64,000 nucleotides of DNA from Gammaproteobacteria bacterium (lineage in GTDB: Bacteria; Pseudomonadota; Gammaproteobacteria; Eutrophobiales; Eutrophobiaceae), in assembly GCA_965116585.1 (NCBI GenBank), contig OZ220714.1, forward strand, positions 1,477,088-1,541,087. Reading direction: 5' to 3'. Positions within the stretch are counted from its first letter, which is position 1. Every line of letters begins with the position of its first letter. The notes under the pieces are model-generated. The model searched no databases and was not told the DNA's origin. It worked only from the letters and a program-made list of their open reading frames with translations. The position numbers and the translations under genes were made by a program. Below are positions 3,296 through 64,000 of the stretch, piece after piece.

Positions 3296-5014
3296 CTATG
3301 GTTCCTGCCGCGCATAAACCACTTCACCCTCGATCATTGTTTTCTCAACGCTGACCTTGTGCAATTCTGTCACCGGGATGTTGTAGGGGTCGCGATCCAG
3401 CACGATGAGGTCGGCGAGCAGGCCGGGTTCGATGCGGCCAAGCTGGTCTGCCTTACCCAGGTGTTTGGCCGAGTTTACCGTAAATAAACGGATGGCCTGA
3501 TCCAGTGAAATCGCCTGTTCCTTGCCGAAACTCTGCTCACTGCCACCGGGTTTTTCACGGGTAACCAGCGCCTCAACTGCCACCCACGGATTGACTGAAG
3601 GGACCACCGCCCAGTCCGAGCCCGGCACTACCAGGGCGCCGCCGGCCAGCATGTCCCGCACCGGCCAGACCCGGCGGATACGCTGAGCGCCAATCTCCGT
3701 GGTGATGTCATCATTAATCGGGCTGGGGCTCCATAAATAAGGGGAGACCTCAAAGGTAACGCCTATCATTGACGCCCGGGGAATATCCTCTTCGGATACA
3801 AAAGTGCAATGTCCTACGTCGTGCAATTGACCACTGAAACCATTGGCGTTGCGCGCCGCCTGGAAAGCATTCAAGCCCGCACGGACTGCGGCATCGCCTG
3901 CGGCATGGAATTTTACGGTCAGCCCCATCCGGTCAAAACGGGTGACCGCTTCGTTCAGCACGTCCTGTTGCACCAGCAACATGCCGTAACGGCTGGCCTC
4001 ATCCGCGCGTCCTTCCATAGGTCGGGCATAAGGTTCCAGCATCGCCGCAGTGTGACTGTCGGTAGGCACGCCATCAAGGAAGATCTTGACGCAATCCGTC
4101 GCGACCCGTTCCCGGACATACAGGTTGCGCTTTGCGATCACCTGTTCCAGTTCCTCGTTCTCTTCCTCCCAGTTCAGGCATAACCTGACGCGCTGGCTGA
4201 CCTTGCCGTCATCGGCCAGTTGCGTGTAGAGCTGCATTTCCCGCTCCGTCCCGGCGATAAAACCGGTAGACGCCTCGGTATAGGAAGTGATGCCATGCGC
4301 CAACATCTCATTCATGCTCCATTCCAGCGCTGCGCGTAAATCCTCATCAGAATGAGGCGGCACGTGTTGCCTGACTGTATAGATGGCCGCTTCGCGCAAC
4401 ACACCGGTTGGCTCTCCCGCGTGATCGCGCTCAATAATCCCGCCTTCCGGGTCCGCGGTCTCAGCAGTGATGCCGGCAATGGCCAGCGCCGCGGAATTTG
4501 CCCAGGAACTGTGGCCGCTGGTGTCGTATAACAACACCGGGTTATCCGGGGCGATGGTATCCAGCATGGTCTTGTCCGGCACACGACCTATCGCCGAAGC
4601 ATCCCACTGCCCGCCGGTGATCCATTTGCCCGCGCCCCTGTTTTCAGCGCAGTTCTTGACCAGGGATTGTATCTGTTCCAAGGTCGAACCCTGCGGGATA
4701 TCGCACTCGGACCGGCGGATGCCGGAAAACAGCGGATGCACGTGCATGTCGTGAAAACCCGGCAATACCGTCTTGCCGCCGAGGTCAATGTGCCGGGTTT
4801 GGGCGCCGGCAAGCGCGCCAATGGAGGCCGCATCACCTACGGCCGTAATCACGCCGGTGCGTAGCGCCAGCGCTTCCGCCCTGGGTTGTTCCGGGTTCAG
4901 CGTGTATATGACGCCGTTGGTGAGTATGGTATCGGCCTGTCCGGCCATGGTTGAAGCGTGTCCACACAGCGCTGCCAGCACGACTGCCAGTCTGACGACA
5001 TTCCTGCCCCGCAT
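3296..5014 (-). CDS. Periplasmic metal-dependent amidohydrolase (amidohydrolase-3 family)
   Basis: Likely start MRGRNVVRLAVVLAALCGHAST (signal peptide) with an AGGAAGGAG ribosome-binding site (RBS) upstream. HDMHVHP metal-binding motif. Amidohydrolase fold hallmarks along its length. Confidence 0.8.
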   Translation of the reverse strand: MRGRNVVRLAVVLAALCGHASTMAGQADTILTNGVIYTLNPEQPRAEALALRTGVITAVGDAASIGALAGAQTRHIDLGGKTVLPGFHDMHVHPLFSGIRRSECDIPQGSTLEQIQSLVKNCAENRGAGKWITGGQWDASAIGRVPDKTMLDTIAPDNPVLLYDTSGHSSWANSAALAIAGITAETADPEGGIIERDHAGEPTGVLREAAIYTVRQHVPPHSDEDLRAALEWSMNEMLAHGITSYTEASTGFIAGTEREMQLYTQLADDGKVSQRVRLCLNWEEENEELEQVIAKRNLYVRERVATDCVKIFLDGVPTDSHTAAMLEPYARPMEGRADEASRYGMLLVQQDVLNEAVTRFDRMGLTVKFHAAGDAAVRAGLNAFQAARNANGFSGQLHDVGHCTFVSEEDIPRASMIGVTFEVSPYLWSPSPINDDITTEIGAQRIRRVWPVRDMLAGGALVVPGSDWAVVPSVNPWVAVEALVTREKPGGSEQSFGKEQAISLDQAIRLFTVNSAKHLGKADQLGRIEPGLLADLIVLDRDPYNIPVTELHKVSVEKTMIEGEVVYARQEP

Positions 5015-5125
5015 GTTCTTTCTCCTTCCTGAAAACAGGTTAAAGCAAACTCTGATTAAGCCAGAGGTTCCCGTGATACAGGGATGTATCGCCAAAATCA
5101 ATGACTGTAAGTCGTTGATTTTGAG

Positions 5126-5156
5126 AGCAAAGCAAAAGTCGCATTTTTGCTTTGCG
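5126..5156. promoter_or_regulatory. Near-perfect 12-bp inverted repeat (AGCAAAGCAAAA / TTTTGCTTTGCg) between the second TonB receptor and the amidohydrolase
   Basis: Seen directly in the sequence. No clean U-tract on either strand. Possible attenuator or operator within the receptor-amidohydrolase transcription unit. Confidence 0.4.
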
Positions 5157-5195
5157 TGCTCTGACAAGTCCAGGATGGACTTGTTCAGAGCTTTC

Positions 5196-7538
5196 CTAAA
5201 ATTCATAATCCAGGGAAACCCCGTAAGTAGCCGGCATACCATTCATCCTCACGTAACAACAGTTACTGGTGGACGTTGAGTGCCAGTACTCCTCATTGAA
5301 GATGTTCCGTCCCCAGATCGTCACACCCCAACGGTCGTCTGCCGCGCTCAACCGGGCCCGGGCATTCACCAGGAAATAATCGCTGATGGGCGGCTGGACG
5401 GCGCCGTCGTTATCATCCTTGTAGGAGAAGTCTCCCGCCACCATCATATTCATTGTGCCGGTTACCGGCCATTCATAAGTCAGCGTTCCGTTAGCCTGCC
5501 AGTTCGGCGAGTTTGCCAGATCGGAGCCGGAAGCGTCAAACGTTACCACGGTGGGAAATAGGCTGGCAAACTCATCTATGGCCTCGTATTCCTTGATTTC
5601 CGTATTCAGCCATGCGATACCCAGGTCCAAAGTCAACCCTGTTGTAACCAGCCAGTGCGATTCCATTTCTATGCCAACTGATTCCGATTCGGGCACATTC
5701 GTCAGGCCGGAGATGTTACCTACCGGTGTGACAGCCACGCTGGGCTCCTGCTTGTCTTCATAGTCATAATAGAAGCCGGCAAGGTTCAGTTGCAGCCGAC
5801 CGTCAAACAGTACGGATTTGAAACCTGCCTCGTATGCCGTCAGTGTTTCCGAGGTATACGGTAATAACTGACTGTGAGTCTGGGCCGCCGCGCCGTTGAA
5901 ACCGCCGGACTTGAAGCCTTTTGATACGGTGCCGTAAAGCAGCACGTCTTCTACGGGGCTGTAATCAAGCGTGACTTTCCACATCCATTTGTCGGTAGCG
6001 ATTTTATCGGAAAATACTGCCAGTTGACCGAAAGTGGGCGAACCGGGTCTTTCATCATAAATACCGCAACCATTCGGGGACAGGGGTCCGGGGTCCGGAA
6101 AGCCCTGCGGCACCATGACGAAAGGCGTGAGAATAAAATTCCACAGCGCGCCCAGCGAACCGTCGCCGCCGTCGTAAGTGCAACCACTCCATTCCCGTTC
6201 CTCATCCGTGTAGCGCGCGCCCAGGGTCAGGCGAGCATCCTGAATAAACTCATATTCTATATGAGCAAAGCCGGCAATGGCTTCCGTGGTCTGGTCGTAG
6301 CGGGTGTCGATCTCAAGCCCCGGCGGATTACCGAAAAAGGCGAAAAAGGATTCATCCATGTTGAAGTAATAACTTTCCTTCATCTTATCCCAGGAGTAAT
6401 AGGCGCCAACCAGCCAGTACAGGTTGGAGTCATTGTTTGATGAGATACGTAATTCCTGGGACACGACTTCCAGATCGGTGGTGTTGAGTATATCGGCGTC
6501 CTCAAATGCAACGCCGGACGTGTCAAAGGTTTCTTCCCGCTCAAACTTGTCGTAAGAGCTGATAGTCGTCACGTTTACTGCGCCGACGTCCCAATCCAGT
6601 TTTGCGGAAACACCCTTGAGAGTATTATCACGCTTTGGCGCGGCATCCGGCGACCAGTCGGCCAGCCGGTTCTTTCCTTCGGAAAATATGATATTTCCCG
6701 GGGTGTCCAGGAACAGTGCCGTGGGCAATCCGATGGTTGTTCCGTCGAACGGCGTCGCGGCCATATTATCGGAATTGTCTTCGTACCAATGCAGGTTGAG
6801 AAACAGTGACGCATTCTCATTGATGTCCAGGTCCAGCAGGCCGCGTACGGCAATATCGTCGTACTCTCCCAACCTGTCGCCGGGACGGCTCAGGCTTTTC
6901 TGCCAGCCGTCACCGGCTGACTGGGTGGTTTTCACTGCCACACGGGCGCGGGCTTTATCTGTCAGCGGACCGCTTGCATAGGCTTCGGCATCGATCACGT
7001 CAAAACGGCTGTATCCAAGCTTTATGCCTGCAGCAAATTCATCCGTCGGTTTGCGGCTGACGAAATTGATTTGTCCGGCGGTGGTATTACGTCCGTAGAG
7101 GTCGCCCTGCGGCCCTTTCAGCACCTCCACGCGTTCCACGTCGAACAATACGCCGCGGGTCATGACGCTGTAAGGAAGGTTGACTTCGTCGAAGTACAGC
7201 CCCACGGTACTTGAAGCAGAGGTGGTGTAGTCTGCAAAGCCGACGCCGCGGATGGTATATACGGGAACGCCCTGGGGTTGTGCGTTGGTAACGGTGAGCC
7301 CGGCGGTGATGGTTTCCAGGTCTTCCGCCGATCGCACACCGTAGTTTTCAAGCTGGGCCGCGGTGAATGCGTTGACGGTAATGCCGACGTCGTTGATCCC
7401 TTGCTCGCGTTTCTGCGCAGTCACGATAACCTCTTCGAGCGCGGTCTGCTGACCCGGTACGGAAGCAGGAAAAGCAGCAAACAAAATAATCAAGCAGCAA
7501 GCCAAACTAAGGGAGGAAAATTGGTTCTCGGCTGGCAT
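5196..7538 (-). CDS. TonB-dependent outer-membrane receptor (paralog of 666..2990)
   Basis: 780 aa. Signal peptide. Plug motif LEEVIVTAQKREQGINDVGITV nearly identical to the first receptor. C-terminal YEF. Confidence 0.9.
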   Translation of the reverse strand: MPAENQFSSLSLACCLIILFAAFPASVPGQQTALEEVIVTAQKREQGINDVGITVNAFTAAQLENYGVRSAEDLETITAGLTVTNAQPQGVPVYTIRGVGFADYTTSASSTVGLYFDEVNLPYSVMTRGVLFDVERVEVLKGPQGDLYGRNTTAGQINFVSRKPTDEFAAGIKLGYSRFDVIDAEAYASGPLTDKARARVAVKTTQSAGDGWQKSLSRPGDRLGEYDDIAVRGLLDLDINENASLFLNLHWYEDNSDNMAATPFDGTTIGLPTALFLDTPGNIIFSEGKNRLADWSPDAAPKRDNTLKGVSAKLDWDVGAVNVTTISSYDKFEREETFDTSGVAFEDADILNTTDLEVVSQELRISSNNDSNLYWLVGAYYSWDKMKESYYFNMDESFFAFFGNPPGLEIDTRYDQTTEAIAGFAHIEYEFIQDARLTLGARYTDEEREWSGCTYDGGDGSLGALWNFILTPFVMVPQGFPDPGPLSPNGCGIYDERPGSPTFGQLAVFSDKIATDKWMWKVTLDYSPVEDVLLYGTVSKGFKSGGFNGAAAQTHSQLLPYTSETLTAYEAGFKSVLFDGRLQLNLAGFYYDYEDKQEPSVAVTPVGNISGLTNVPESESVGIEMESHWLVTTGLTLDLGIAWLNTEIKEYEAIDEFASLFPTVVTFDASGSDLANSPNWQANGTLTYEWPVTGTMNMMVAGDFSYKDDNDGAVQPPISDYFLVNARARLSAADDRWGVTIWGRNIFNEEYWHSTSTSNCCYVRMNGMPATYGVSLDYEF

Positions 7539-7679
7539 GTTCTTTCTCCGATATTAACTACGAGTAATTATTCGCATACTGCCGTGTAAAGTCAAGATAA
7601 TTCCTGTATTATTTTGGCTAATCACTCAAACCAGGGGTAGAATTAGCCTGTCCCCATAAATTTACACAGCAAAATAATC

Positions 7680-8321
7680 ATGCAGGAAATCCCGGACGTC
7701 CACCAGAAGCTCTCCGCCAGAAAAAAGCCGTCTCAACCCCGTTCCCAGAAGATGGTGAAAGGTATCCTTGATGCAACTCGCAATCTGCTCTGGAAATCCG
7801 GCACCGCTGAAGTATCTCAGATAACAACCAATCACATTGCCAGGGAAGCGAAAATATCGGTTGGTTCACTCTACCAGTATTTCCCGAACAAGGAGGCGAT
7901 CCTGTTCGAATTGTACCGGGAACTCCTGGGACAGGTCACCCTGGTTCTGGAGAAGTTCAAATCCGAGCCCTGCCTGTCATTGCCGCGGGAAGAATTCTTT
8001 GATCGTTTCTACAGGGAAATGAAAGGCGCCGAGGCCGAGAGCAAAGTGATATTTGAAATGCACAATGCCGTGAAAATCTATCCGGCTCTTGCTGAAGCAG
8101 ACCGGCGCCATGCGGAACTGATCGCCCGGGAAATGGCCGGGTTTATGAAACATTTCGGCTCCCGGTGGCCGATGGAAAAACTGCAACGACTCGCGCTGCA
8201 CGCGTATTACGTCAATTACGGGACCTGGATGTATCGTGATCATGTACGTCCTGACTACGGAGAGGTCCTTGACTGGGAGATCAGCGCGCTGAATTTCATG
8301 ATCTCAAGATGCTTTGATTAG
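7680..8321 (+). CDS. TetR/AcrR-family transcriptional regulator
   Basis: N-terminal helix-turn-helix ILDATRNLLWKSGTAEVSQITTNHIAREAKISVGSLYQYFPNKEAILFELY. Divergent from the receptor-amidohydrolase unit. Confidence 0.85.
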   Translation: MQEIPDVHQKLSARKKPSQPRSQKMVKGILDATRNLLWKSGTAEVSQITTNHIAREAKISVGSLYQYFPNKEAILFELYRELLGQVTLVLEKFKSEPCLSLPREEFFDRFYREMKGAEAESKVIFEMHNAVKIYPALAEADRRHAELIAREMAGFMKHFGSRWPMEKLQRLALHAYYVNYGTWMYRDHVRPDYGEVLDWEISALNFMISRCFD

Positions 8322-8362
8322 CCTGGTACTGTTGCAGCAGGCTGGGCGCAACTAATGAGGAG

Positions 8363-9283
8363 TTGAAAACCATGAGAGCGATAATCGCACCTGTCATATT
8401 TTTTCTCATGCTGTTGAGTTCTACAGCATACGCGGATGCAAACAATCTCCGGGTGGAGATGTTCAAGGGGGAGTTTGCCACGGTGAACTCCTTCATTTTT
8501 TCCAACGGCAAGTCCATCATCGTCATGGACGTGCAGCGCAAGACCTTCGAGGCAAAAAAGCTGGTCGAACGCGTCAGGGCCTATAACCTGCCGGTTACCC
8601 ACATCCTGATCACCCACGGCCACACCGACCACTTCACCGGCATGCCCCTGTTCCGGGACGAGTTCCCCGATGCGAAGATCGTGGTAGCCAATGAAGACAT
8701 CCGCAAGGACATCAAGGCGTATGCCATTTACATGGACGGCTTTGGCGCCACTGCTGCTGAGCCGGTGCTGGAACCGCCCCTGAAACCCAAATCAGCCGAT
8801 AACCCGGACGGGTTCGATTATGAAAACACTATCCAACTGCTTGATGAGAACGTCCTGACCCTGGAGGGCGGCGGCGCCCTGGAATTGACTACGGATTACA
8901 AGCCGGCGGAAGCGGACCACATGACTACGGTCTACAGCCCGGAACTCAACGCCATTTTCCTGTCGGATTTCGGCTATAACCGCGTACATCACTGGCAGGG
9001 CGATGACATCAGTTGGCAGGATATCGCCAACTGGCGGGAAGAACTGCTGCGCATCAAACACGAATACGCCGAGCGTAATCCCACCGTCTATCCGGGACAT
9101 GGTGACGTGGGTGACATGGGCATGTTCGATGACATGGTCCAATACATCGACGACTATACCCGTATCGTACAGGCGGCAAAGAACCGGGAAGAGACCATGG
9201 AGAAAATGACTGCGTTATATCCTGACCACGGCGAGGCGGATTTTTTCCTCAAATACAGTATTCATAACCATATTCCGGAATAG
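8363..9283 (+). CDS. Secreted MBL-fold metallo-hydrolase
   Basis: Signal peptide MKTMRAIIAPVIFFLMLLSSTAYA. HxHxDH motif (ILITHGHTDHFTG). GAGGAG RBS upstream. Confidence 0.85.
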   Translation: MKTMRAIIAPVIFFLMLLSSTAYADANNLRVEMFKGEFATVNSFIFSNGKSIIVMDVQRKTFEAKKLVERVRAYNLPVTHILITHGHTDHFTGMPLFRDEFPDAKIVVANEDIRKDIKAYAIYMDGFGATAAEPVLEPPLKPKSADNPDGFDYENTIQLLDENVLTLEGGGALELTTDYKPAEADHMTTVYSPELNAIFLSDFGYNRVHHWQGDDISWQDIANWREELLRIKHEYAERNPTVYPGHGDVGDMGMFDDMVQYIDDYTRIVQAAKNREETMEKMTALYPDHGEADFFLKYSIHNHIPE

Positions 9284-9404
9284 GCCGGTACTAGCAACGG
9301 TTTGTGGTCAGCTCTGCAAAATTTGTCTGTGTATCATCACTCATGAACAAGGTATGACGGCTGAATATCATCCACTTAATGGTTGAACTTCAGCCATTCT
9401 GCTG

Positions 9405-10580
9405 TTATGTGGTTGATTCCAGAGTCGGGGCGATAAATTTACCCAACTCTCGATAAGGAATCAGCCGGTAACGGTCTGTTTCACGGGCTTGATCGCCAGT
9501 ATAGACTACACTGCCCGTCAGGCAGCGGGCGCCAGCCAGGTCTTGAAAATAGCGAATGCCTTTAAGATAGGAATCGTGCCAGGTTTGTGCAGATTTGATC
9601 TCAAACGGCGCCAGTTCCCGGCCTTGTTGCACCAGCAAGTCCAGTTCATTACCGCGGCTGTCCCGAAAGAAAAACAACCTGGGGTCCACGCCACGATTAA
9701 GCAGTGTTTTCAACGCTTCGACCACTACCATGTTTTCGAACAGGTGTCCCTTCAACGGGTCGCGCCGCATCTGTGTTTCGGTTTCAATACCCAGTAACCA
9801 GGCAGCCAACCCGGGATCAACAAAATACAGCTTGGGCGCTTTGATGATGCGTTTACCGAAATTCTCATAATAGGGTTGTAACCTGAAAATAACGAATGAC
9901 GCCTCCAGCACAGACAACCACTCTGCAATAGTGGCCGACGATACCCCCACGTCATTGGCCAGGGAGGACTGGTTCAGCAGTTGGCCCACCCTGCCGGCGC
10001 ACAGGCGCACGAAATTTTCAAATTTCACAAAGTCCTTTAATTGCACGAGTAAGCGTACGTCCCGTTCAATGTAGGTCTGAAAATAGCTGCGATAGAAGTC
10101 CGCAACAGGAATATCCTGAGCATGCTTGCCCGGCATAAACCCGTTCAGGAGCTCCTGCTCCATACTGACCTTTGCCGACCCCAATTCTTCAAAGCTGAGC
10201 GGTAGCAAGGTTAACAGTGCCGCGCGGCCTGCCAGAGACTGTGAAAGCGCCTGGCTGAGTTCAAGCTGGTGGCTGCCGGTCAGGATGAATTGTCCGTTTT
10301 CAGCATCCTCATCAACAATCGTTTGAATGTAAGACACTATCTCCGGTACTCTTTGCACCTCATCGATAATGACTTTGGAACGGTATTCATTGAGGAACGC
10401 GCGCGGGTCATCCCTTGCATAAACCCGCATATCAGGGTTTTCCAATGAGACATAACGGTATGCGGGGAATGCCAGCTTGCACAGCGTCGTCTTCCCGGCC
10501 TGACGCGGCCCGGTCAAACTGACCACCCGGAATAACCTGGACAGGGAGACTGTTTTATTTATGATCTGGCGGTTGAACAA
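9405..10580 (-). CDS. AAA-family ATPase with DUF4143 C-terminal domain
   Basis: Walker A SLTGPRQAGKTTL. Family-typical length (391 aa). TTG start per ORF track. Paralog at 55321..56802. Confidence 0.78.
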   Translation of the reverse strand: MFNRQIINKTVSLSRLFRVVSLTGPRQAGKTTLCKLAFPAYRYVSLENPDMRVYARDDPRAFLNEYRSKVIIDEVQRVPEIVSYIQTIVDEDAENGQFILTGSHQLELSQALSQSLAGRAALLTLLPLSFEELGSAKVSMEQELLNGFMPGKHAQDIPVADFYRSYFQTYIERDVRLLVQLKDFVKFENFVRLCAGRVGQLLNQSSLANDVGVSSATIAEWLSVLEASFVIFRLQPYYENFGKRIIKAPKLYFVDPGLAAWLLGIETETQMRRDPLKGHLFENMVVVEALKTLLNRGVDPRLFFFRDSRGNELDLLVQQGRELAPFEIKSAQTWHDSYLKGIRYFQDLAGARCLTGSVVYTGDQARETDRYRLIPYRELGKFIAPTLESTT

Positions 10581-55079: not shown

Positions 55080-55257
55080 TTGGTTGTACCTCCAAACTCT
55101 CATGCTCAGGGTTCTGAGCTCTCCGACGAAATGCAACTCGGGACAGAATGTGTCCGTCCCCTGATTCCATTAGCAAGCTACGCATGCAATCCAGGGGGAT
55201 TGTAGCGTATTCCAACCTGTATTTCTCACAGACTCAACACTTGACTCCGGCTTGGTT

Positions 55258-55300
55258 ATATTAGGATAATTCAAAATCACAGTTTGAACTATCCTAATAT
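55258..55300. promoter_or_regulatory. 11-bp-arm palindrome ATATTAGGATA…TATCCTAATAT with loop core CAGTTTGAACTAT, 20 nt upstream of the second DUF4143 ATPase gene
   Basis: Read directly. The loop core matches that of the palindrome at 10588-10640 (CAGTTGAACTAT). Confidence 0.65.
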
Positions 55301-55320
55301 TACTGGTAGAGTCCAAGGTT

Positions 55321-56802
55321 ATGATCTATCGCGACCTGACTCTGGAAATAATCAAGGCAGCAACCCGGGCGCCAGCCATAACGCTGACGGGACCCAGGCA
55401 GAGTGGCAAGACGTTGTTATGCAGGGCACTATTTCCAGACCACCCGTACAGAACGCTTGAGGACCCTGACCAGCGCGCGTTTGCACTGGAGGACCCTCGA
55501 ACATTTCTGGCGCAATTTCCAGATGGCGCAGTCATTGACGAGGTGCAACGCGTACCCGGACTGCTATCGTATCTACAGGGTATCATCGATAACAACCCTG
55601 TGCCCGGACGTTGGATACTCAGCGGTTCACAAAATTTGTCCTTGCTGGAATCAATCAGCCAGTCACTGGCAGGACGAACCGAGGTGCACCAGCTATTACC
55701 ACTGACCTGGAGTGAGATCAGTCGCTTCGCCAAGTACCCCAAACGCCTTGAAGATATCCTGTTCAGCGGTGGCTATCCCCGCATATTCGATCGTGAGCTT
55801 GAGCCATCTGCCTGGTTACGCTCCTATGTCGCCACTTATCTTGAACGGGACGTTCGAATGCTGGGTAACGTGGGAGACCTGGTGACATTTCAACGCTTCG
55901 TCGAGCTATGTGCCGGCCGCACCGGACAACTGCTGAACTATTCCTCCCTGGCCAACGATTGCGGCATTTCCCAACCGACCGCAAAAACCTGGTTCAGCAT
56001 TCTGGAGGCCAGTTTTATTGCTTTCCGCCTGCCTTCGTTCAGCTTCAGATTACGTAAACGTCTGGTAAAGATGCCAAAGTTGTATTTTTACGATACCGGA
56101 CTGGTCTGCTGGCTACTGGGAATCCGTGAAGCGCAACAACTCCTCACACATCCTCTACGCGGCGCCATTTTCGAGACCTGGATCACATCGGAAATCCTGA
56201 AACATCGTACCAATCAGGGCGAAACCCGAGGACTTTCATTCTATCGGGACAGCAACGGCGCCGAAGTTGATCTTGTTATTGAACAGCCTGATGGTATAAC
56301 GCTGCTCGAGGCCAAATCCTCCGCAACCCCGGCAAAAAGATTGTTTGACAGTGTCAGGCGAGTGCAACGGCATTTCCCCGATGCGCCATTGCCGGAATTG
56401 ACGGTAGTTTACGGTGGCGAGGAATTTCAACAGCGTGCAGAAGGCCGGCTGATACCGTGGCGGATGCTGCGTGCAACGGCGCTGCCTGATGCCGGCGCCA
56501 TCGTGCGGGTCAGTTCGGGAGGGCATCCGCTCGCGTCTGCCGACATACTTGCGTTATTCCCAAACAAAACCTTCAAGTCCGCACAGACAGATGAACACGG
56601 CGAGGCGAGACTTGATTTGCATTCCCTTCATCTTCCAATGACGGTGTTCGTGACTGCCAACGGGTTCAGGGCACACTTGCAGCAGAACTGGGTGCCCGCC
56701 GAGCAGATACTGCATATCAATCTAGCTCCGCTTCAGAGTGGGGGGTCGGTAATTTTTCCAAATAATTTTACTATGATCGCCTCAAGAAATCCGAGCATAT
56801 GA
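55321..56802 (+). CDS. AAA-family ATPase with DUF4143 domain (paralog of 9405..10580) and a ~100-aa C-terminal extension
   Basis: Walker A ITLTGPRQSGKTLL. Alignable with the first paralog over ~390 aa. Confidence 0.8.
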   Translation: MIYRDLTLEIIKAATRAPAITLTGPRQSGKTLLCRALFPDHPYRTLEDPDQRAFALEDPRTFLAQFPDGAVIDEVQRVPGLLSYLQGIIDNNPVPGRWILSGSQNLSLLESISQSLAGRTEVHQLLPLTWSEISRFAKYPKRLEDILFSGGYPRIFDRELEPSAWLRSYVATYLERDVRMLGNVGDLVTFQRFVELCAGRTGQLLNYSSLANDCGISQPTAKTWFSILEASFIAFRLPSFSFRLRKRLVKMPKLYFYDTGLVCWLLGIREAQQLLTHPLRGAIFETWITSEILKHRTNQGETRGLSFYRDSNGAEVDLVIEQPDGITLLEAKSSATPAKRLFDSVRRVQRHFPDAPLPELTVVYGGEEFQQRAEGRLIPWRMLRATALPDAGAIVRVSSGGHPLASADILALFPNKTFKSAQTDEHGEARLDLHSLHLPMTVFVTANGFRAHLQQNWVPAEQILHINLAPLQSGGSVIFPNNFTMIASRNPSI

Positions 56803-56810
56803 ACATTTGG

Positions 56811-57800
56811 CTATTGACCGGAGAGCGTTGATTCTCTTATCGGAAGCGTCTCGAGCAGGCGTTCCGTTTCCTGAACCAGCTCATTGACTATTTCACCGGC
56901 TGGTTTGATTGAATCCACACTGCCCACGCTTTGTCCGGCGTACTGGGCCATGGCTTCAACATTCCCGATGCTGCCGACAAGAGGAGAAAATACGCTGAAA
57001 CGGGGGACATCTATGGTATTACCACCCAGTTGTATCTCCCCCACTATACCGTCTTCACTGGCTTTGGCCGCTGCCAGGGATTGTTTCAATACCCGGTGCG
57101 GCGCATCGGGCCACATGACCGAGAAGCGATCGGTGTACACTGCATCTTCACTTTTTGCATTCAGGAGATTCTGGATATATTGCGGGTGATAACCGGATTC
57201 AGGCGTGGCGACGAAACGTGTGCCCATGCGCACCGCGCCGGCGCCGGCAGCCAGCGCGGCGGCGATCCCGGACGCGTTGGCAATGCCCCCTGCGGCAATA
57301 ACCGGGGTCTGCACTTGTTCCAGGACATTTTCCAGTATGGGCAACAGGGAAACCGTGCCTCTGACGTGCCCCCCGGCCTCGAATCCTTGCACGATGACAA
57401 AATCACACCTGGCCTCAACAGCCGATACGGCTTCATCAACACCGCCGACCTGCCAAGCAGCCAGCGCCTTGCCTGCATGGACCTGTTTAACCAGATCACT
57501 ATCCGGGTCTCCATAGAAAAACTCCACAACACGGCAGCGCCGGGCGGCTATGTCAATGACGCTCCTGTCCTCCAGGAACGGAATAAGAAAATTGATACCC
57601 AGACATCCTGGAGAAACGTCGCCAATTTCGTCCAGCGTGGTTTCCAGGGTCGCCGGAGACAATAACGTGCCGCTCAGCATACCCAAAGCGCCAGCCCTGG
57701 CGACAGCAGCCCCCAACGCCGGTGATGCCGTACCCATGCCCGCGTTCTGGATAGGATGTCGGCAGCCGACCAGTTCAGTGAATGCTGTGGTTATTGTCAA
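56811..57800 (-). CDS. Nitronate monooxygenase / 2-nitropropane dioxygenase-family FMN enzyme
   Basis: N-terminus LVGCRHPIQNAGMGTAS. TIM-barrel FMN-binding motifs. Confidence 0.85.
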   Translation of the reverse strand: MTITTAFTELVGCRHPIQNAGMGTASPALGAAVARAGALGMLSGTLLSPATLETTLDEIGDVSPGCLGINFLIPFLEDRSVIDIAARRCRVVEFFYGDPDSDLVKQVHAGKALAAWQVGGVDEAVSAVEARCDFVIVQGFEAGGHVRGTVSLLPILENVLEQVQTPVIAAGGIANASGIAAALAAGAGAVRMGTRFVATPESGYHPQYIQNLLNAKSEDAVYTDRFSVMWPDAPHRVLKQSLAAAKASEDGIVGEIQLGGNTIDVPRFSVFSPLVGSIGNVEAMAQYAGQSVGSVDSIKPAGEIVNELVQETERLLETLPIRESTLSGQ

Positions 57801-58037
57801 TAGTGACCGCCTGCCTCATACTATGAGTCTGTGCGTTCTTTCATAGTGTTAATCACACTTGATCGTATTTTATTCGAGCCTGTTGTCAACAAATATGGCC
57901 GTTGCAAATGACAACGCTCATCTTACCGGATACGGATTGCACCCGGTATCCGACCGAAAGGAAGTGGAATTTGGTATTGCATTGCCTGAATCCCAGGACT
58001 ATACTCGACATAAATATGTGTTCTTAGGGAGAGAATT

Positions 58038-58229
58038 TTGACCATGTTCAAAATAAGACAACATTCCAGAGAGGAAGTATCCGAGTTTCTCGAGGATGCT
58101 GCGATAAGATTCTTTCAGGACCCCAATGTCCAGGAAATTCTGAGATCTGAACCTGAAACCAGCAAAATGCTTGATGAAGCACTCAAGCGGCAACAAACGG
58201 CAACTACGATTTTGCAAAAACCGTTCTGA
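58038..58229 (+). CDS. Small hypothetical protein (63 aa) in an AT-rich intergenic patch
   Basis: GGGAGAG RBS 8 nt upstream of the ATG. No recognisable motif. Confidence 0.3.
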   Translation: MTMFKIRQHSREEVSEFLEDAAIRFFQDPNVQEILRSEPETSKMLDEALKRQQTATTILQKPF

Positions 58230-58367
58230 CTTCAGGAATTGGCGGTGCGGTAATTGGCGGTATTGCGACTTATTATTTTCAACGCTGTGATAAGTGAAAG
58301 AGACTGTGGGATGTGAGTACTGCAGCCTAATCCGGTACACAGTTGTTCCTCATGGAATACCTGAAAA

Positions 58368-61300
58368 TCACTCAATCACCACCAGCAAATCGCCGTTGTC
58401 CACCACGTGGTTGGCGCTCACGACTACTCGTTTGATGATGCCGCTTTTCCCTGCGGGGATGGAGGATTGCATTTTCATGGCCTCCAGCACTACCACTGTA
58501 TCGCCCTGCCGGACGCGTTCCCCGGCTGATACCTCTACGGCTACTACCAGTCCCGGCATAGGCGCGGCGAGTTGGCCGGGATCGGCGGGGTCGGCTTTTT
58601 CGTTCTGGTGGACTTCGTGGCTGAGGCTGTTGTCCCTGACGATAACGGTCTGGGGTTGGCCGTTCAGCTCGAAGAATACCCGGCGCATGCCCTCTTCGTC
58701 CGGCTCGGAGGTGGCCAGGTAATGCACTATCGCCTGCCGGTGGCCTTCAAAGGATAAAACCGTCTCCTCGCCGATCGCCAGTCCGTAGAAGAAAACATGG
58801 GTGGGCAACAGGCTGACCGCGGCGTATTTGCGTTTCATTTCGACATAGTCGAGAAACACGTTCGGGTACATCAGGTAGGACGCCAGGTCAAAATCGGACA
58901 CCTCTTCCTTGAGTTGGGCCTTGAGGTTGTCCCTGGCCAGTTCCAGGTCAACCGGCGCCAGTGACGCGCCGGGGCGGCCTTGTAGCGGCGCTTTACCGTT
59001 CAGTACCTTGGCCTGCAACGCCGGTGGAAACCCGCCCACGGGTTGTCCCATTTCGCCGTGAAAAAACTGGATGACCGATTCGGGAAAGGCAATTTCCTGG
59101 TCGGGATCGAGGATGTCCTGTTGCGTCAGCCCGGCCGTCACCATGGCCAGGGCCATGTCGCCCACTACCTTGGAGGTCGGCGTGACCTTGATGATATCCC
59201 CGAACAGCTCGTTCACGTCCGCGTAAGCCCGGGCGATTTCCGGCCAGCGCCGGTCGATGCCCAGGGAGCGCGCCTGTTCGCGCAGGTTGGTGTACTGGCC
59301 GCCCGGCATTTCATGCACGTAAACTTCCGAGGCGCCCGCGCGTATCTCCGGTTCAAATGCACAGTATTGTTCCCTCACTTCTTCCCAGTACCGGCTGATC
59401 ACCTGGATGGCCTCCGTGTCCAGGTGCGTGCTGCGGTCGGTATGTTCCAGGGCCGCAACGATCGCGCCCAAGTTCGGCTGCGAGGTCAGGCCGCTCATGC
59501 TGTCGATGGCGGCATCGACAATATCCGCGCCCGCTTCCACCGCGGCCAGCACGGTGCCCGCGGAGATGCCGCTGGTATCATGGGTATGCAGGTGGATGGG
59601 CAGGTCAATCTCCTGTTTCAACGCGGTGATCAGCAACCGCGCCGCGCCCGGCTTCAGCAGGCCGGCCATGTCTTTTATGCCCAGGATATGCGCGCCCATG
59701 TCGCGGTATTTGCCGGCCAGGTCCAGGTAGTAATCCAGTGTGTATTTCTGTTTGCCCGGATCCAGTATGTCACCCGTATAACAGATTGCCGTCTCGATGA
59801 CTTTCCCGGTTTCCCCGACCGCATCCACGGCCACCTGCATATTTTCCGGCCAGTTCAGGCTGTCGAAGATCCTGAATACGTCGACACCGGCCGCGGCAGC
59901 CTGCTTGACAAAATACCTGACCACGTTATCCGGATAATTGGTGTAGCCCACCGCGTTGGAAGCGCGCAGCAGCATCTGCTGCATGATGTTGGGCATGGCC
60001 GTGCTCAAGTCGAATAACCGCTGCCACGGGTCTTCATGCAAAAACCTGAGCGCCACGTCGAAGGTGGCGCCGCCCCAGGACTCGACGGAAAACAGCCCGG
60101 ACATGTTATGCGCGTAATACGGCGCGATCGCGACCAGGTCCTTGCTCCTGAGCCGGGTCGCCAGCAGCGACTGGTGTGCGTCACGAAACGTGGTGTCCGT
60201 AACCAGCGGTTGGGGCTGTTCCCGGATCCAGTCCATCAGGCCGCTCGGTCCTGTTTCGTCGAACACTGCCTTGGGTCCGTTTACAGGTGGTTTCCCCACG
60301 CATACCGGCGCCGCGGGCTCACGTAACGAGGCCGGGACAGGCCGGTCCTGCACGTCCTTGTTGCCGTTCACGATCACGTCGGCAATAAAACGGAGCAAGC
60401 GCTCAATCTGGCTTTGCCGCCTGCCGAATTCAAACAACTCGGTCGTCTCGTCGATGAAACGGGTATTGTAAGCGCCGGACTGGAAGCCGGAGTGGTCCAG
60501 AAGTTGTAATAAAAACGGCAGGTTGGTGGCCACCCCGCGCACGCGGAATTCCAGCAGGGCGCGCCGCATTCGGTTGATGCTCTCTTCGCCATCGCCCCCG
60601 CGGGAGGTGACTTTTACCAGCAAGCTGTCGTAGGCGCGGGAGATCCAGGCGCCGGAATAGGCCGCGCCGCCGTCGAGTCGAATGCCGGGTCCCGCGGGAC
60701 TCCGGTAGGCGATGATATTGCCGTAATCCGGGATAAAGTTGTTGTTCGGGTCCTCGGCGGTGACGCGGCATTGCAGCGCGGTGCCGATGACCCGGATATC
60801 GGACTGCGGCGGGATGACCGCGCCGGCCTGGCCGATTTTTTCTCCCTGCGCGATCCTGATTTGCGCCTTGACGATATCAATGCCCGTGATCTCTTCGGTA
60901 ACCGTGTGCTCGACCTGTACCCTGGGATTGACCTCAATGAAATAAAAGGCCTCAGCCGCCTTGTCGTACAGGAACTCCACGGTTGCCGCATTGTCCACGC
61001 CCGCCTTGCGGGCCAGTTTCACCGCCGCCCGGCAGATCTCCTCGCGTTTGTCCGGCGCCAGGTGAATGGCCGGGGCGCGCTCGATCACCTTTTGATGGCG
61101 GCGTTGCAGTGAGCAGTCACGCTCATATAAATGCACGATGTTGCCATGATGATCGCCCAGGATCTGCACTTCGATGTGCAGCGCATCCTCTACCAGCTTT
61201 TCAAAAAACACCTCGTCGTTGCCGAACGCGGTGTTTGCTTCCTGGCGCGCACGCGTGACCACGTCGTGCATACCGTTACCGGCCCTGATCACCCGCATCC

Positions 61301-61838
61301 CGCGCCCGCCCCCGCCCCAACTGGCCTTCAGCATCAGCGGGAAACCGATCGACCCGGCAATGCGTTCCGTCTCCCCCTCATCGTCCGGCAACGGGCCCGA
61401 CGCCGGCATCACGGCAATCCCGGCCCTGTCAGCCAGTTCCCGTGCCTGTACCTTGTTGCCCAGGCCCCGCAACACTGCGGGCCGCGGGCCGATAAAATTG
61501 ATGCCCTGCCGTTCACACTGTTCGGCAAAATCGGCATTTTCGGATAAAAAACCGTAACCGGGATGCAGCGCATCACATTCGGCTTCAACGGCCACGCGCA
61601 GTATATCGGCGCCGTCCAGGTACGCCTCAACAGGCCCCACCCCTATGCCGATCTGGTAAGACTGATCCGGCTTGAACCGGTGCAGGGCCAGACGGTCTTC
61701 CTCGGAGAAGATGCCCACCGTGGCGATGCCCATCTCCTGTGCGGCGCGCACCACCCGCACTGCGATCTCCCCCCGGTTGGCGACAAGTATGCGTTTGATT
61801 GTGTTTCCGGAATTACGCAAGACAAACATCCACGGCAA
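58368..61838 (-). CDS. pyc: Pyruvate carboxylase, single-chain (biotin carboxylase + carboxyltransferase + biotinyl carrier domains)
   Basis: LVANRGEIAVR biotin-carboxylase N-terminus. Carboxyltransferase TIM-barrel motifs. C-terminal EAMKMQ biotin attachment site. 1,156 aa. Confidence 0.95.
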   Translation of the reverse strand: MPWMFVLRNSGNTIKRILVANRGEIAVRVVRAAQEMGIATVGIFSEEDRLALHRFKPDQSYQIGIGVGPVEAYLDGADILRVAVEAECDALHPGYGFLSENADFAEQCERQGINFIGPRPAVLRGLGNKVQARELADRAGIAVMPASGPLPDDEGETERIAGSIGFPLMLKASWGGGGRGMRVIRAGNGMHDVVTRARQEANTAFGNDEVFFEKLVEDALHIEVQILGDHHGNIVHLYERDCSLQRRHQKVIERAPAIHLAPDKREEICRAAVKLARKAGVDNAATVEFLYDKAAEAFYFIEVNPRVQVEHTVTEEITGIDIVKAQIRIAQGEKIGQAGAVIPPQSDIRVIGTALQCRVTAEDPNNNFIPDYGNIIAYRSPAGPGIRLDGGAAYSGAWISRAYDSLLVKVTSRGGDGEESINRMRRALLEFRVRGVATNLPFLLQLLDHSGFQSGAYNTRFIDETTELFEFGRRQSQIERLLRFIADVIVNGNKDVQDRPVPASLREPAAPVCVGKPPVNGPKAVFDETGPSGLMDWIREQPQPLVTDTTFRDAHQSLLATRLRSKDLVAIAPYYAHNMSGLFSVESWGGATFDVALRFLHEDPWQRLFDLSTAMPNIMQQMLLRASNAVGYTNYPDNVVRYFVKQAAAAGVDVFRIFDSLNWPENMQVAVDAVGETGKVIETAICYTGDILDPGKQKYTLDYYLDLAGKYRDMGAHILGIKDMAGLLKPGAARLLITALKQEIDLPIHLHTHDTSGISAGTVLAAVEAGADIVDAAIDSMSGLTSQPNLGAIVAALEHTDRSTHLDTEAIQVISRYWEEVREQYCAFEPEIRAGASEVYVHEMPGGQYTNLREQARSLGIDRRWPEIARAYADVNELFGDIIKVTPTSKVVGDMALAMVTAGLTQQDILDPDQEIAFPESVIQFFHGEMGQPVGGFPPALQAKVLNGKAPLQGRPGASLAPVDLELARDNLKAQLKEEVSDFDLASYLMYPNVFLDYVEMKRKYAAVSLLPTHVFFYGLAIGEETVLSFEGHRQAIVHYLATSEPDEEGMRRVFFELNGQPQTVIVRDNSLSHEVHQNEKADPADPGQLAAPMPGLVVAVEVSAGERVRQGDTVVVLEAMKMQSSIPAGKSGIIKRVVVSANHVVDNGDLLVVIE

Positions 61839-61904
61839 AAAAGGATGTCTATCTTATCGCAGTATCAGGTCAAAGCAATAAGGAATGGTTGTCCCACCCA
61901 AAAT

Positions 61905-63161
61905 TCAGGCCTTACTACTATAAATTCCTCTATATTCGTCACGCAGTAGAGCATATTCAATACAGTTGATCAAAAACCGTTTGGCATCCTGCCAGCTTAT
62001 GTTTCGATCAGTGGGTAATTTCCCAAGGAAGACTCTACCGTTTCGCAGCAGATGTGGCGCCTTTGCTCCGACATACTCAAGGACGAGATTTCGCTTTACA
62101 CTGCCCAATTTTCCTGCTGTGAGCCTCCCGTTATGCCAAATCAATGCATGTTGTCCGTTTTTTTCAACAAATTTATCCATATCCAACTGCAAAGAGTGAT
62201 GTGGTTGTTTTTCATAATCGTCAATTGCAATATTCAACTGTGTATTCCCCCTTCGATTTCCCCATGTTGGATCGTTTTTTCGTGACATGGTGCCGGTAAT
62301 TGAAAAACTGACAATCTGGTCGTCTCCATCCTTATCCTTAATGATGAAACTTCGATAATGGCTCGTATATCCTCCACCAGCAGCATTTCCAAAACTGGAA
62401 TAACGCAACGCTAAATCTTCACTAATAGTAATGTTCCTATTTTTGATTGGTAGTTTTGGAGATTTATTTTTATCGCGTAGTAAGCCCACCAGATTGGCGA
62501 AAAAAGGCAAATTTTCATCAGGGCTGTCCACGCCAAAACAACCATAGTCACGATGTCCTTTTTTGCCTGTCCCAAAATCAAACCTCCCATCCCTTATTGC
62601 ATTGGATATGTCCTTGTGCTCTGGGCGTTTCCATGGTTTTTGCTTTTGCCTCCTATAGTCATAGTCCCTGATTTTCATCATCTCTTTGTAAGTTAAAATT
62701 CCTTTTGCATTGTGCCATTCTTCATTTTCTCGAATGACTATTTCAGACTCGACGCCATTAGTCAGAATAACTATTCTGGTTCCAGAACAATCGGCATAAG
62801 TCTTTGCTTGTTCAAAAACACTTTGTGTCAATGGTGTTTCTGGTTTCTTACATTCAACAACAAAAAGTGGTTTTTCTTGCGTGACAAGACCAACAATATC
62901 AGCGCGCCCCCTCGCCCCTCTCTTGTAATGAGACATTGCATCTTCGACACGTAACATTGTTTCTGGCACGCCAACTTTTTCCTGCAAAAAAACGATAAAT
63001 TCTTGCCGTACTTTCTCTTCTTCAGTAACGTGCACAAACATCTTGCGGACTGCACACAAGTAAACATCTTCTCCACCACGCTTATATCGCCTTGGATCCT
63101 TCAGCAATTGAAATGCTAAATTCTTTATTGGCTTTTTCTTTTTTATTGATAGTTGCTTCAA
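61905..63161 (-). CDS. Hypothetical protein with an N-terminal HsdR-N-like PD-(D/E)xK nuclease fold and an unknown ~270-aa C-terminal domain; on an AT-rich islet
   Basis: GRADIVGLV…PLFVVECKKPE is a D…ExK pattern resembling the type I restriction enzyme R-subunit N-terminal domain. Local GC clearly below its flanks. ATGA overlap with the upstream gene. Confidence 0.6.
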   Translation of the reverse strand: MKQLSIKKKKPIKNLAFQLLKDPRRYKRGGEDVYLCAVRKMFVHVTEEEKVRQEFIVFLQEKVGVPETMLRVEDAMSHYKRGARGRADIVGLVTQEKPLFVVECKKPETPLTQSVFEQAKTYADCSGTRIVILTNGVESEIVIRENEEWHNAKGILTYKEMMKIRDYDYRRQKQKPWKRPEHKDISNAIRDGRFDFGTGKKGHRDYGCFGVDSPDENLPFFANLVGLLRDKNKSPKLPIKNRNITISEDLALRYSSFGNAAGGGYTSHYRSFIIKDKDGDDQIVSFSITGTMSRKNDPTWGNRRGNTQLNIAIDDYEKQPHHSLQLDMDKFVEKNGQHALIWHNGRLTAGKLGSVKRNLVLEYVGAKAPHLLRNGRVFLGKLPTDRNISWQDAKRFLINCIEYALLRDEYRGIYSSKA

Positions 63162-63739
63162 GTCATTTCCATACTGATGTAGTTAACAGTGTAATCCTTG
63201 CTCGAACCCTGTGGAGGAATGTCAGGGATAGTCTCTGGTGGTATAACTGGCCCAATCAGGTCATGACGGGTGCTGAGACCATAAGCAACGGCTAATCGAT
63301 AGAAGCCTCTCGGCGCCAACTCCTTAGCCTCAAGGTTCTCCGGCTTCGGAAGATCAATAAAATCCAAGTCAGCTTTTGGTATTGTATGTTTTCCCGCTAA
63401 TTTGAGAGATTCCTCATAAAGTCCGATTTTGCATCCTCCCCCGCATAATAAAACCGGCAGGCTATTCTCCCAGACTTCTGCCAAAGGATTCCGTCGAGTT
63501 TTCGTTTCGTGTAGGACAGCACTGATCAACTTGGTGCATCGGCTACGGAAATTGCTCTCGATCTTTCCGAGTCCCCCGTCATCAATAGGGATAGGCTTAT
63601 AGGCTTCCAAAGGCGGCAGTGGCGAAACCCCGTCATTGATCGCCAGGATTTTGTTCAACTGTTCTTTTACATAGGCTTCCACATCGATTACACGCTGACG
63701 GTGAAGGGAATAACCCGCATATCTCACCAACCCTACCAT
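63158..63739 (-). CDS. Hypothetical 193-aa protein, first gene of the AT-rich two-gene module
   Basis: In-frame stop 5 codons upstream of the ATG, so the N-terminus is complete. No motif I can name (contains LLCGGGCK and a Pro-rich C-terminus). Confidence 0.55.
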   Translation of the reverse strand: MVGLVRYAGYSLHRQRVIDVEAYVKEQLNKILAINDGVSPLPPLEAYKPIPIDDGGLGKIESNFRSRCTKLISAVLHETKTRRNPLAEVWENSLPVLLCGGGCKIGLYEESLKLAGKHTIPKADLDFIDLPKPENLEAKELAPRGFYRLAVAYGLSTRHDLIGPVIPPETIPDIPPQGSSKDYTVNYISMEMT

Positions 63740-64000
63740 ACAGCGACAAACAGGCTATCCGACATTGATTCATACACTGCATAGGGTCGGCAGGACAGGT
63801 CACCACACAAACAGGTGAAGCACATGGCCTGTTTGTCGTAAAAATCGGGTGATATAGCGGCTTTTCCCTGCCCAGGCGGGTGTGAAGCGTTGCTTGGGCC
63901 AAGAGCGGCCGTTCACGGCGGGACAGCCGTGTTGGTCAGGGAACAGGTGCGGGCCGGCAGATCAGCCGGGCGGGTCGGGCACGGGGCGCTCTCGCAGTCG

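Follow-up and report, generated by a model that had tools for sequence, protein, structure and literature searches.

Does the AT-rich islet immediately upstream of the pyruvate carboxylase gene (pyc) of a gammaproteobacterium hold a two-gene anti-phage system? The islet lies near the right end of the window, by which we mean the whole 64,000-nucleotide stretch of DNA that was analysed (contig OZ220714.1, assembly GCA_965116585.1), and it contains two open reading frames (ORFs) on the minus strand, here called gene A and gene B. A first-pass annotation, made from the letters of the window alone, read them as one translationally coupled module built around a nuclease. We find that A and B are not one system. 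The explanation that we favour, and to which we give somewhat better than even chances as a whole, is that gene B encodes a self-contained accessory nuclease, that gene A is the stump of an unrelated ATPase gene, and that both sit in a variable hotspot; the anatomical and evolutionary statements within it can be made with considerable confidence. The features on which the argument rests are the following.

58368..61838, minus strand: pyc, an ORF with its probable start at the ATG at 61829
61905..63161, minus strand: gene B, an ORF of 418 amino acids with a TTG start
61908..62549, minus strand: C-terminal domain of B (about residues 205-418), beta-rich with a long C-terminal helix, no known relative
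62667..63104, minus strand: N-terminal PD-(D/E)xK nuclease domain of B (about residues 20-165), with D88...E103-x-K105, identified by Pfam, alignment and predicted fold
63158..63161, minus strand: overlap of the gene A stop with the gene B TTG start, 4 nucleotides (TTGA), read from the sequence
63158..63739, minus strand: gene A, an ORF of 193 amino acids

Two genes, not one system

Both ORFs lie where the first-pass annotation had placed them, and the case for a single system of defence or abortive infection, with A as regulator or sensor and B as the cleaving component, starts from their junction, a 4-nucleotide overlap between the stop codon of A and the start codon of B. The overlap is not the ATGA that had been reported: it reads cTTGA, in which the TTG start of B overlaps the TGA stop of A, and the nearby ATG is in the frame of A. 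Two further facts speak for a coupled pair. An independent metagenome contig (L106) has the same junction, at 98.8% identity, and the ORF of A is intact from its ATG to the native C-terminus of its family. It is the comparison with this family, however, that dissolves the pair.

A word-indexed search with gene A matches only gene A itself, and a collection of 5.8 billion proteins holds no other of its length class. The annotation had found nothing by which to name it; an exhaustive phmmer search of 1.84 billion representatives does name it. The search yields 581 relatives, almost all of 450 to 650 amino acids, that is, 2.5 to 3 times longer than A, and the whole of A aligns with about the last 190 residues of these proteins, at 31-47% identity: with a relative of 519 amino acids (P0122), for example, it aligns at residues 333-518 with 47% identity. 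The signature of the family consists of the motifs GxDFGTSCTKV (phosphate 1), LLVDVGAxTLDV (phosphate 2) and LPVFLCGGGS (adenosine). Gene A keeps the adenosine motif, as LPVxLCGGG, together with the family fold and the native C-terminus; it lacks about the first 330 residues, and starts after both the phosphate-1 (DxGxxxxK) and phosphate-2 (DxGxxTxD) motifs. What is left is thus a 5'-truncated stump that could not bind ATP. In tblastn searches with seven full-length members of the family, homology in the window is confined to 63164-63730, and the stretch 63740-64000 has no A-family homology in any frame and contains stops in all six. Neither the remainder of an A-family gene nor a gene for DrmD, the usual partner of the family (see below), is present in the 260 nucleotides 5' of A, where the window ends at 64000. 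Judged by these alignments, gene A is probably a pseudogene, the 3' remnant of a gene for an actin/Hsp70-fold (ASKHA) ATPase, reduced to its C-terminal third.

The native context of the A family was established from 80 metagenomic loci (L021-L100). In 60 of them, a protein of about 1040 amino acids is encoded on the same strand and ends roughly 4 nucleotides upstream; this partner is a full-length DrmD-type SNF2 helicase (PADLOC PDLC02623, E 1e-277 and 1e-283; Pfam SNF2-rel_dom and Helicase_C). Modules of this helicase are a component of defence islands, of a DISARM-like kind. Examples of the pair are found at 2473-7494 of L022 and at 2814-7434 of L037. The loci also contain UvrD-like genes, often before the helicase, DpdE-like genes, and genes for type I methyltransferases and specificity subunits. 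Full-length relatives of A belong to no Pfam family and are weakly similar to the PADLOC candidate PDC-M61B; gene A itself has no match in PADLOC-DB v2.0.0. That a DrmD-type SNF2 helicase and an actin/Hsp70-fold ATPase form a conserved pair came to light as a by-product; searches of the accessible literature gave no description of such a pairing and nothing relevant on PDC-M61. Eukaryotic SNF2 remodellers use actin-related proteins, of which an SNF2 and actin-fold pair is formally reminiscent.

If A and B formed a system, their families should be expected to meet elsewhere, and they do not. A hidden Markov model search finds a B-family ORF in none of the 80 A-family loci. The homologues of B were compared in about a dozen contexts in all, comprising L001-L020 (about nine distinct contexts) and four later ones (L101-L105, L107): there is no A-family match in L001-L020, and the genes listed for the later contexts, which were not homology-searched, include no A-like or DrmD/SNF2 annotation. 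Among the homologues of B that adjoin pyc, the closest lack gene A altogether. Synteny of the A and B homologues is thus absent, an outcome that the annotation itself had named as refuting its proposal. The two genes also differ in composition, the GC content at third codon positions (GC3) being 0.485 in A and 0.363 in B. As for L106, an identity of 98.8% to the window marks it as this very locus, from a close relative, and not as an independent pairing of A with B. A coupled two-gene defence system is therefore a highly improbable account of the islet; for the expression of B, gene A would be at most a translated leader.

Gene B and its family

The reading of the N-terminal half of B as an HsdR-N-type PD-(D/E)xK core, which the annotation had based on the motif RADIVGLV...FVVECKKP, is borne out; the motif is indeed found in gene B, as is the second one that was quoted, GNAAGGGYTSH. 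The Pfam family HSDR_N_2 (PF13588) is matched at residues 48-143 with a score of 66.9 bits for a cut-off of 25 (E 2e-18), and is matched as well by all the 50 homologues that were aligned. The best sequence match in the PDB is the nuclease domain of a Vibrio HsdR (3h1t). The AlphaFold model, with a mean predicted local distance difference test score (pLDDT) of 93.4 and a predicted template modelling score (pTM) of 0.87, has a restriction-endonuclease-like alpha/beta fold that matches the nuclease domains of HsdR and BpuSI. In the family alignment, which contains 50 of at least 435 relatives, the invariant residues of this half are R86, D88, E103, K105, Q118 and Y122, and they make up the PD-(D/E)xK core. 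Pfam finds no SF2 motor domain (ResIII / Helicase_C) in B or in the 50 homologues, and the NCBIfam model of EcoAI-type HsdR gives B 21 bits for a cut-off of 550.

The C-terminal domain, of about 215 amino acids, is modelled with confidence and has conserved residues of its own: N259, G262, H343, G345, Y403 and R407 are invariant in the same alignment, many more residues are nearly so, and the conserved motifs that hold them are FGNAAGG, HxSLQLxLD, WHNG and YALLRDExR. The annotation had recognised nothing in this part of the protein, and rightly: no relative is returned by Foldseek against the PDB, by Pfam scans of the 50 members or by a profile search of PDB sequences. A word-indexed search with the domain alone yields three truncated relatives and no new architectures. 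The idea that the domain might be a diverged copy of the N-terminal one was rejected, since the comparison of the two with hhalign is negative.

The family has at least 435 members, about 400 amino acids long, whose only label in databases is ‘HsdR N-terminal domain-containing protein’; among the 120 relatives listed, nearly all have about this length and cover more than 90% of B. It ranges over sponge- and marine-associated Gammaproteobacteria, gut Veillonella, Bacteroidota and Bacillota. Gene B is intact and under purifying selection: the ratio of nonsynonymous to synonymous divergence (dN/dS) lies between 0.09 and 0.16 in comparisons with five relatives, at a synonymous divergence (dS) of 0.9-1.7. 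PADLOC-DB v2.0.0 contains no full-length system model for it, the only matches being to the N-terminal parts of fused methyltransferases, in line with the annotation's remark that no described defence system fits. Literature searches return nothing relevant on HSDR_N_2/PF13588, or on the HsdR N-terminal domain in connection with defence. The family is uncharacterised, as far as the searchable literature goes, and its nuclease domain is of a known kind; the novelty of the locus is that of a variant of solitary restriction-like nucleases, not that of a two-gene system.

No neighbour is conserved across the contexts of B homologues, which are in this sense solitary. In particular, no DNA methyltransferase adjoins any of them, and in the window neither a methyltransferase nor a specificity subunit is encoded between pyc and the window end. 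The company that they keep, as the annotation had surmised, is often that of defence, toxin-antitoxin and mobile genes: AbiEi/AbiEii, RelB/ParE, an LmuB-like ATPase, AAA_14/DUF4143, NYN, transposases and integrases. In L101-L105 the homologues lie near transposases, integrase fragments, DUF2779/DUF4007 and Uma2, and on a mobilizable Hymenobacter plasmid IS5 lies beside the homologue. Plasmids account for only two full-length matches, and the family has no relative in 50,697 phage records (tblastn against INPHARED) and none in scans of IMG/VR with patterns of close relatives.

Some of these neighbours invite the conjecture that B is a toxin-type nuclease, of the abortive-infection or toxin-antitoxin kind, which a small upstream regulator restrains and which kills or arrests the cell on infection instead of telling foreign DNA from its own. 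Immediately upstream of the homologues of L005 and L007 are RelB-like or RelB/ParE genes; the homologue of L018 lies downstream of an HTH_17 protein, and that of L001 downstream of AbiEi/AbiEii and an LmuB-like ATPase. However, the upstream gene differs in every context: in L002-4 and L009 it is a divergently oriented gene of 295 amino acids of unknown function, and several contexts have no upstream gene on the same strand. The RelB of L007, moreover, already has its own ParE partner, and a cell would not tolerate a constitutive toxin nuclease that stands alone unless its antidote were conserved too. We consider a toxin unlikely.

The neighbourhood of L001 raises another conjecture. There, an LmuB-like SMC ATPase of 770 amino acids (7632-9944; PADLOC LmuB, E 1.4e-23) ends 57 nucleotides upstream of the B homologue; its gene overlaps the end of the AbiEi/AbiEii pair, and a separate SNF2 helicase lies further upstream. 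B could then be a detachable effector that serves an ATPase machine encoded separately, in the manner of LmuA in Lamassu-type systems, with a partner that is not nearby in the window. The architecture of B, an N-terminal PD-(D/E)xK domain followed by an adaptor-like C-terminal domain, may be like that of LmuA. Against this, such a neighbour is found in only one of the dozen or so contexts, B matches no LmuA model in PADLOC, and no SMC-like gene lies near B in the visible part of the window. An effector of this kind is very unlikely.

Two groups of homologues depart from the single full-length copy. In gut contigs of Veillonella-like genomes (L012-17), tandem paralogues of 385 and 399 amino acids lie between malic enzyme and ClpB-like genes, at 4787-5944 and 6001-7200 in L012; the D/ExK residues are present in both, the NDPxWGNRxG loop of the C-terminal domain is missing from one, and the two could form a heterodimer. 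Elsewhere the copies are degraded or truncated: one is internally deleted (L011, 10001-10456, from the same genome as L001), one has 351 amino acids (L007, 8001-9056), and a version of 299 amino acids (P0007) has lost the nuclease domain. Such copies are the trace of a turnover of the family.

The variable place beside pyc

The islet upstream of pyc is a variable hotspot, anchored by the conserved pyc, that holds one working gene, B, and one wreck, A. Its composition was compared with that of all windows of 1257 nucleotides, the length of gene B, across the 64-kb sequence: their mean GC content is 57.5%, with a standard deviation of 4.5%, and gene B, at 40.7%, is the lowest of all and the sole region under 48%. 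These values support the view that the AT-rich patch is compositionally foreign, as the annotation had held. The fall of GC content that it described across both genes is real for B (0.407); gene A is only moderately AT-rich (0.479), and pyc and the stretch 63740-64000 are both at 0.609.

That the segment was acquired recently is another matter. In related gammaproteobacterial metagenome-assembled genomes (L009 and L002-4), a homologue of B with 73% amino acid identity lies directly upstream of pyc; the pyc product of the window is 92% identical to those of L009 and L004. The nucleotide homology to these relatives runs from pyc through B and ends at 63140, about 20 nucleotides inside B. The relatives thus share B and not A, and the acquisition of B is not recent. 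The equal lengths of two ORFs in the window and in L009, of 295 and 371 amino acids, were also considered, and are a coincidence rather than homology.

The stability of this position does not mean that B has descended together with pyc. The window and L009 differ by a dS of 1.17 in B and of 0.57 in pyc. For L009 and L004 the order is reversed: their B genes are almost identical, with a dS of 0.004, and the adjacent pyc genes have a dS of 0.10, which suggests that the B allele was recently replaced, by recombination or transfer. The synonymous divergence of B does not track that of pyc, a B that is 78% identical lies in a different context in L008, and in every relative examined B has a GC content of 37-43% in a host of 50-56%. 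Despite its stable place by pyc, B behaves as an exchangeable cassette.

These observations bear on a third conjecture, according to which B is a cellular nuclease of DNA metabolism, involved in repair, recombination or the processing of a particular DNA structure, and not in immunity. Such a role would agree with the pyc-adjacent place in several related genomes, with the place between housekeeping genes that the Veillonella-like genomes repeat in many samples, with the strong purifying selection on B, and with its absence from the phage records and the IMG/VR scans. It agrees poorly with a patchy distribution, a foreign composition in every host examined, a synonymous divergence at odds with that of the flanking pyc, the existence of degraded or truncated copies (L007, L011, P0007), and the frequency of transposases, integrases and toxin-antitoxin genes among the neighbours. 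We regard it as quite unlikely.

The boundaries of the islet involve three more features, none of them assigned to a strand.

61839..61915: 3' end of gene B and the spacer between B and pyc, an insertion point in the near-identical relative L106
63740..64000: GC-rich stretch (0.61) with stops in all six frames and no relation to the A family, the upstream break of the islet
63744-63758 and 63824-63838: arms of an inverted repeat, with 65 nucleotides between them, adjoining the end of the A-family homology and of the low GC content

The first is documented by L106 (contig LXNI01014085), in which positions 1-1441, with the A fragment and the junction, correspond to window positions 63355-61915, and positions 2512-2663 to 61900-61758. 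In between, at 1441-2512, is an insertion of 1.07 kb with a gene for an NYN-domain protein (Pfam), placed exactly at the 3' end of B, whose last residues it alters. The junction of B with pyc, where in the window a spacer of 66 nucleotides separates gene B from the pyc ORF, is thus an active insertion point.

The annotation had also proposed, as a possible target-site-like direct repeat, the 8-mer GACAAACA, with one copy at each edge of the islet. The left copy, however, is at 61821-61828 and not at 61842-61849, and forms part of codons 1-3 of pyc (ATGTTTGTC; ATG TTT GTC); the window has five occurrences of the 8-mer, for 1.9 expected. A copy that is pyc coding sequence, at an edge across which the homology to relatives is continuous, does not make a target-site duplication.

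The 12-nucleotide inverted repeat upstream of gene A, in contrast, is real and exact (63744-63755 / 63827-63838), and extends to 15 nucleotides at 93% complementarity. When one mismatch is allowed there are three matches in the window, for 0.43 expected; the fold is unexceptional (z -1.5), no further copy of the element exists in the window or in any locus compared, and Rfam has no match to it. Located at the truncation point of A, the repeat may mark a rearrangement. No tRNA gene lies near the islet, and scans for promoters and terminators around it give nothing above background.

Two other places near pyc vary as well. On its 3' side, the spacer at 57812-58370 has a low GC content (43-45%) and holds only small ORFs that match no family, of 113 amino acids on the minus strand and 63 on the plus strand; the corresponding position is occupied by 4.4 kb of other DNA in L009 and by a phage-type integrase in L004, which makes it a second variable spot flanking pyc. 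Further along, at 55321-56802 on the plus strand, is a gene for an AAA_14/DUF4143 ATPase of 493 amino acids; the segment that holds it, from about 55093 to 56846, is missing from the otherwise syntenic L009. A different AAA_14/DUF4143 gene is found upstream of B in L002 and L009.

Proposed role of gene B and its place among known systems

Gene B would most likely be an accessory defence nuclease. Its HsdR-N-type PD-(D/E)xK domain, being catalytically intact, would cut DNA; its C-terminal domain would supply the recognition of the substrate, or the sensing of some cue; and the protein would work with neither a dedicated partner gene nor a cognate methyltransferase. That it is a defence nuclease, and acts alone, has in our estimation about even odds. 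Assuming that this is so, the most specific guess is a behaviour like that of type IV enzymes, that is, cleavage of DNA bearing a feature that is absent from the host. The guess comes from the consideration that a constitutively active sequence-specific nuclease would be lethal in a cell without the matching methyltransferase; it proceeds by analogy, and we advance modification dependence in particular only tentatively. A bolder conjecture, to be held with similar reserve, is that the family constitutes a new class of single-protein immune nuclease, whose C-terminal domain is a sensor or DNA-reader fold not seen before, which would license the PD-(D/E)xK domain to cut on meeting a phage-specific modification or an infection cue.

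Several points weigh against this reading, and should be taken together. No experiment or known homologue ties the B family to defence, and PADLOC, in its 2023 state, has no model for it. The C-terminal domain resembles no fold known to read modified bases, whether SRA, EVE/ASCH/PUA-like, YTH, winged helix or sulfur-binding domain; type IV-like behaviour is thus an analogy only. The stable position by pyc, and the location of the L012-17 copies between housekeeping genes, would suit a cellular role too. Finally, the conservation of the A/B junction, with its 4-nucleotide overlap, in a second sample leaves room for a residual role of the A fragment.

If B is indeed a defence nuclease, the set of solitary restriction-like enzymes gains a single-gene family that is widespread and whose recognition domain is structurally uncharacterised; enzymes of this kind are potentially useful as reagents if what they recognise is a DNA modification. 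The islet also illustrates how two ORFs that look like a tidy, coupled cassette can come about by accident as a defence island decays.

Four groups of known systems offer points of comparison. As to Lamassu, B has no LmuA match in PADLOC, and an LmuB-like neighbour is found beside a B homologue in L001 only. The DrmD-associated ASKHA ATPases account for gene A, which matches their C-terminal third, including the LPVFLCGGG motif and the native C-terminus, and lacks the first 330 or so residues with both phosphate-binding motifs. With the N-terminal nuclease domains of type I HsdR and type IIG enzymes (PF13588 / PF04313; structures 3h1t, 2w00 and, for BpuSI, 3s1s), B shares sequence family and fold, down to the D...ExK triad followed by a QxxxY helix. 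It differs from them in lacking SF2 translocase or helicase domains, a fused methyltransferase, and an hsdM or hsdS gene alongside, and carries instead the C-terminal domain of 215 amino acids, absent from solved structures and from Pfam. The type IV enzymes, of the MspJI, PvuRts1I/AbaSI, Mrr and DpnI classes, combine one nuclease domain with one DNA-reader domain. The second domain of B matches no known reader fold, and both the order of its domains and the HsdR-N subfamily of its nuclease set it apart from them; but it has in common with these enzymes a solitary single polypeptide, a second, non-catalytic domain, the lack of a cognate methyltransferase, a patchy distribution, a foreign composition, and a location in variable or defence regions of the genome.

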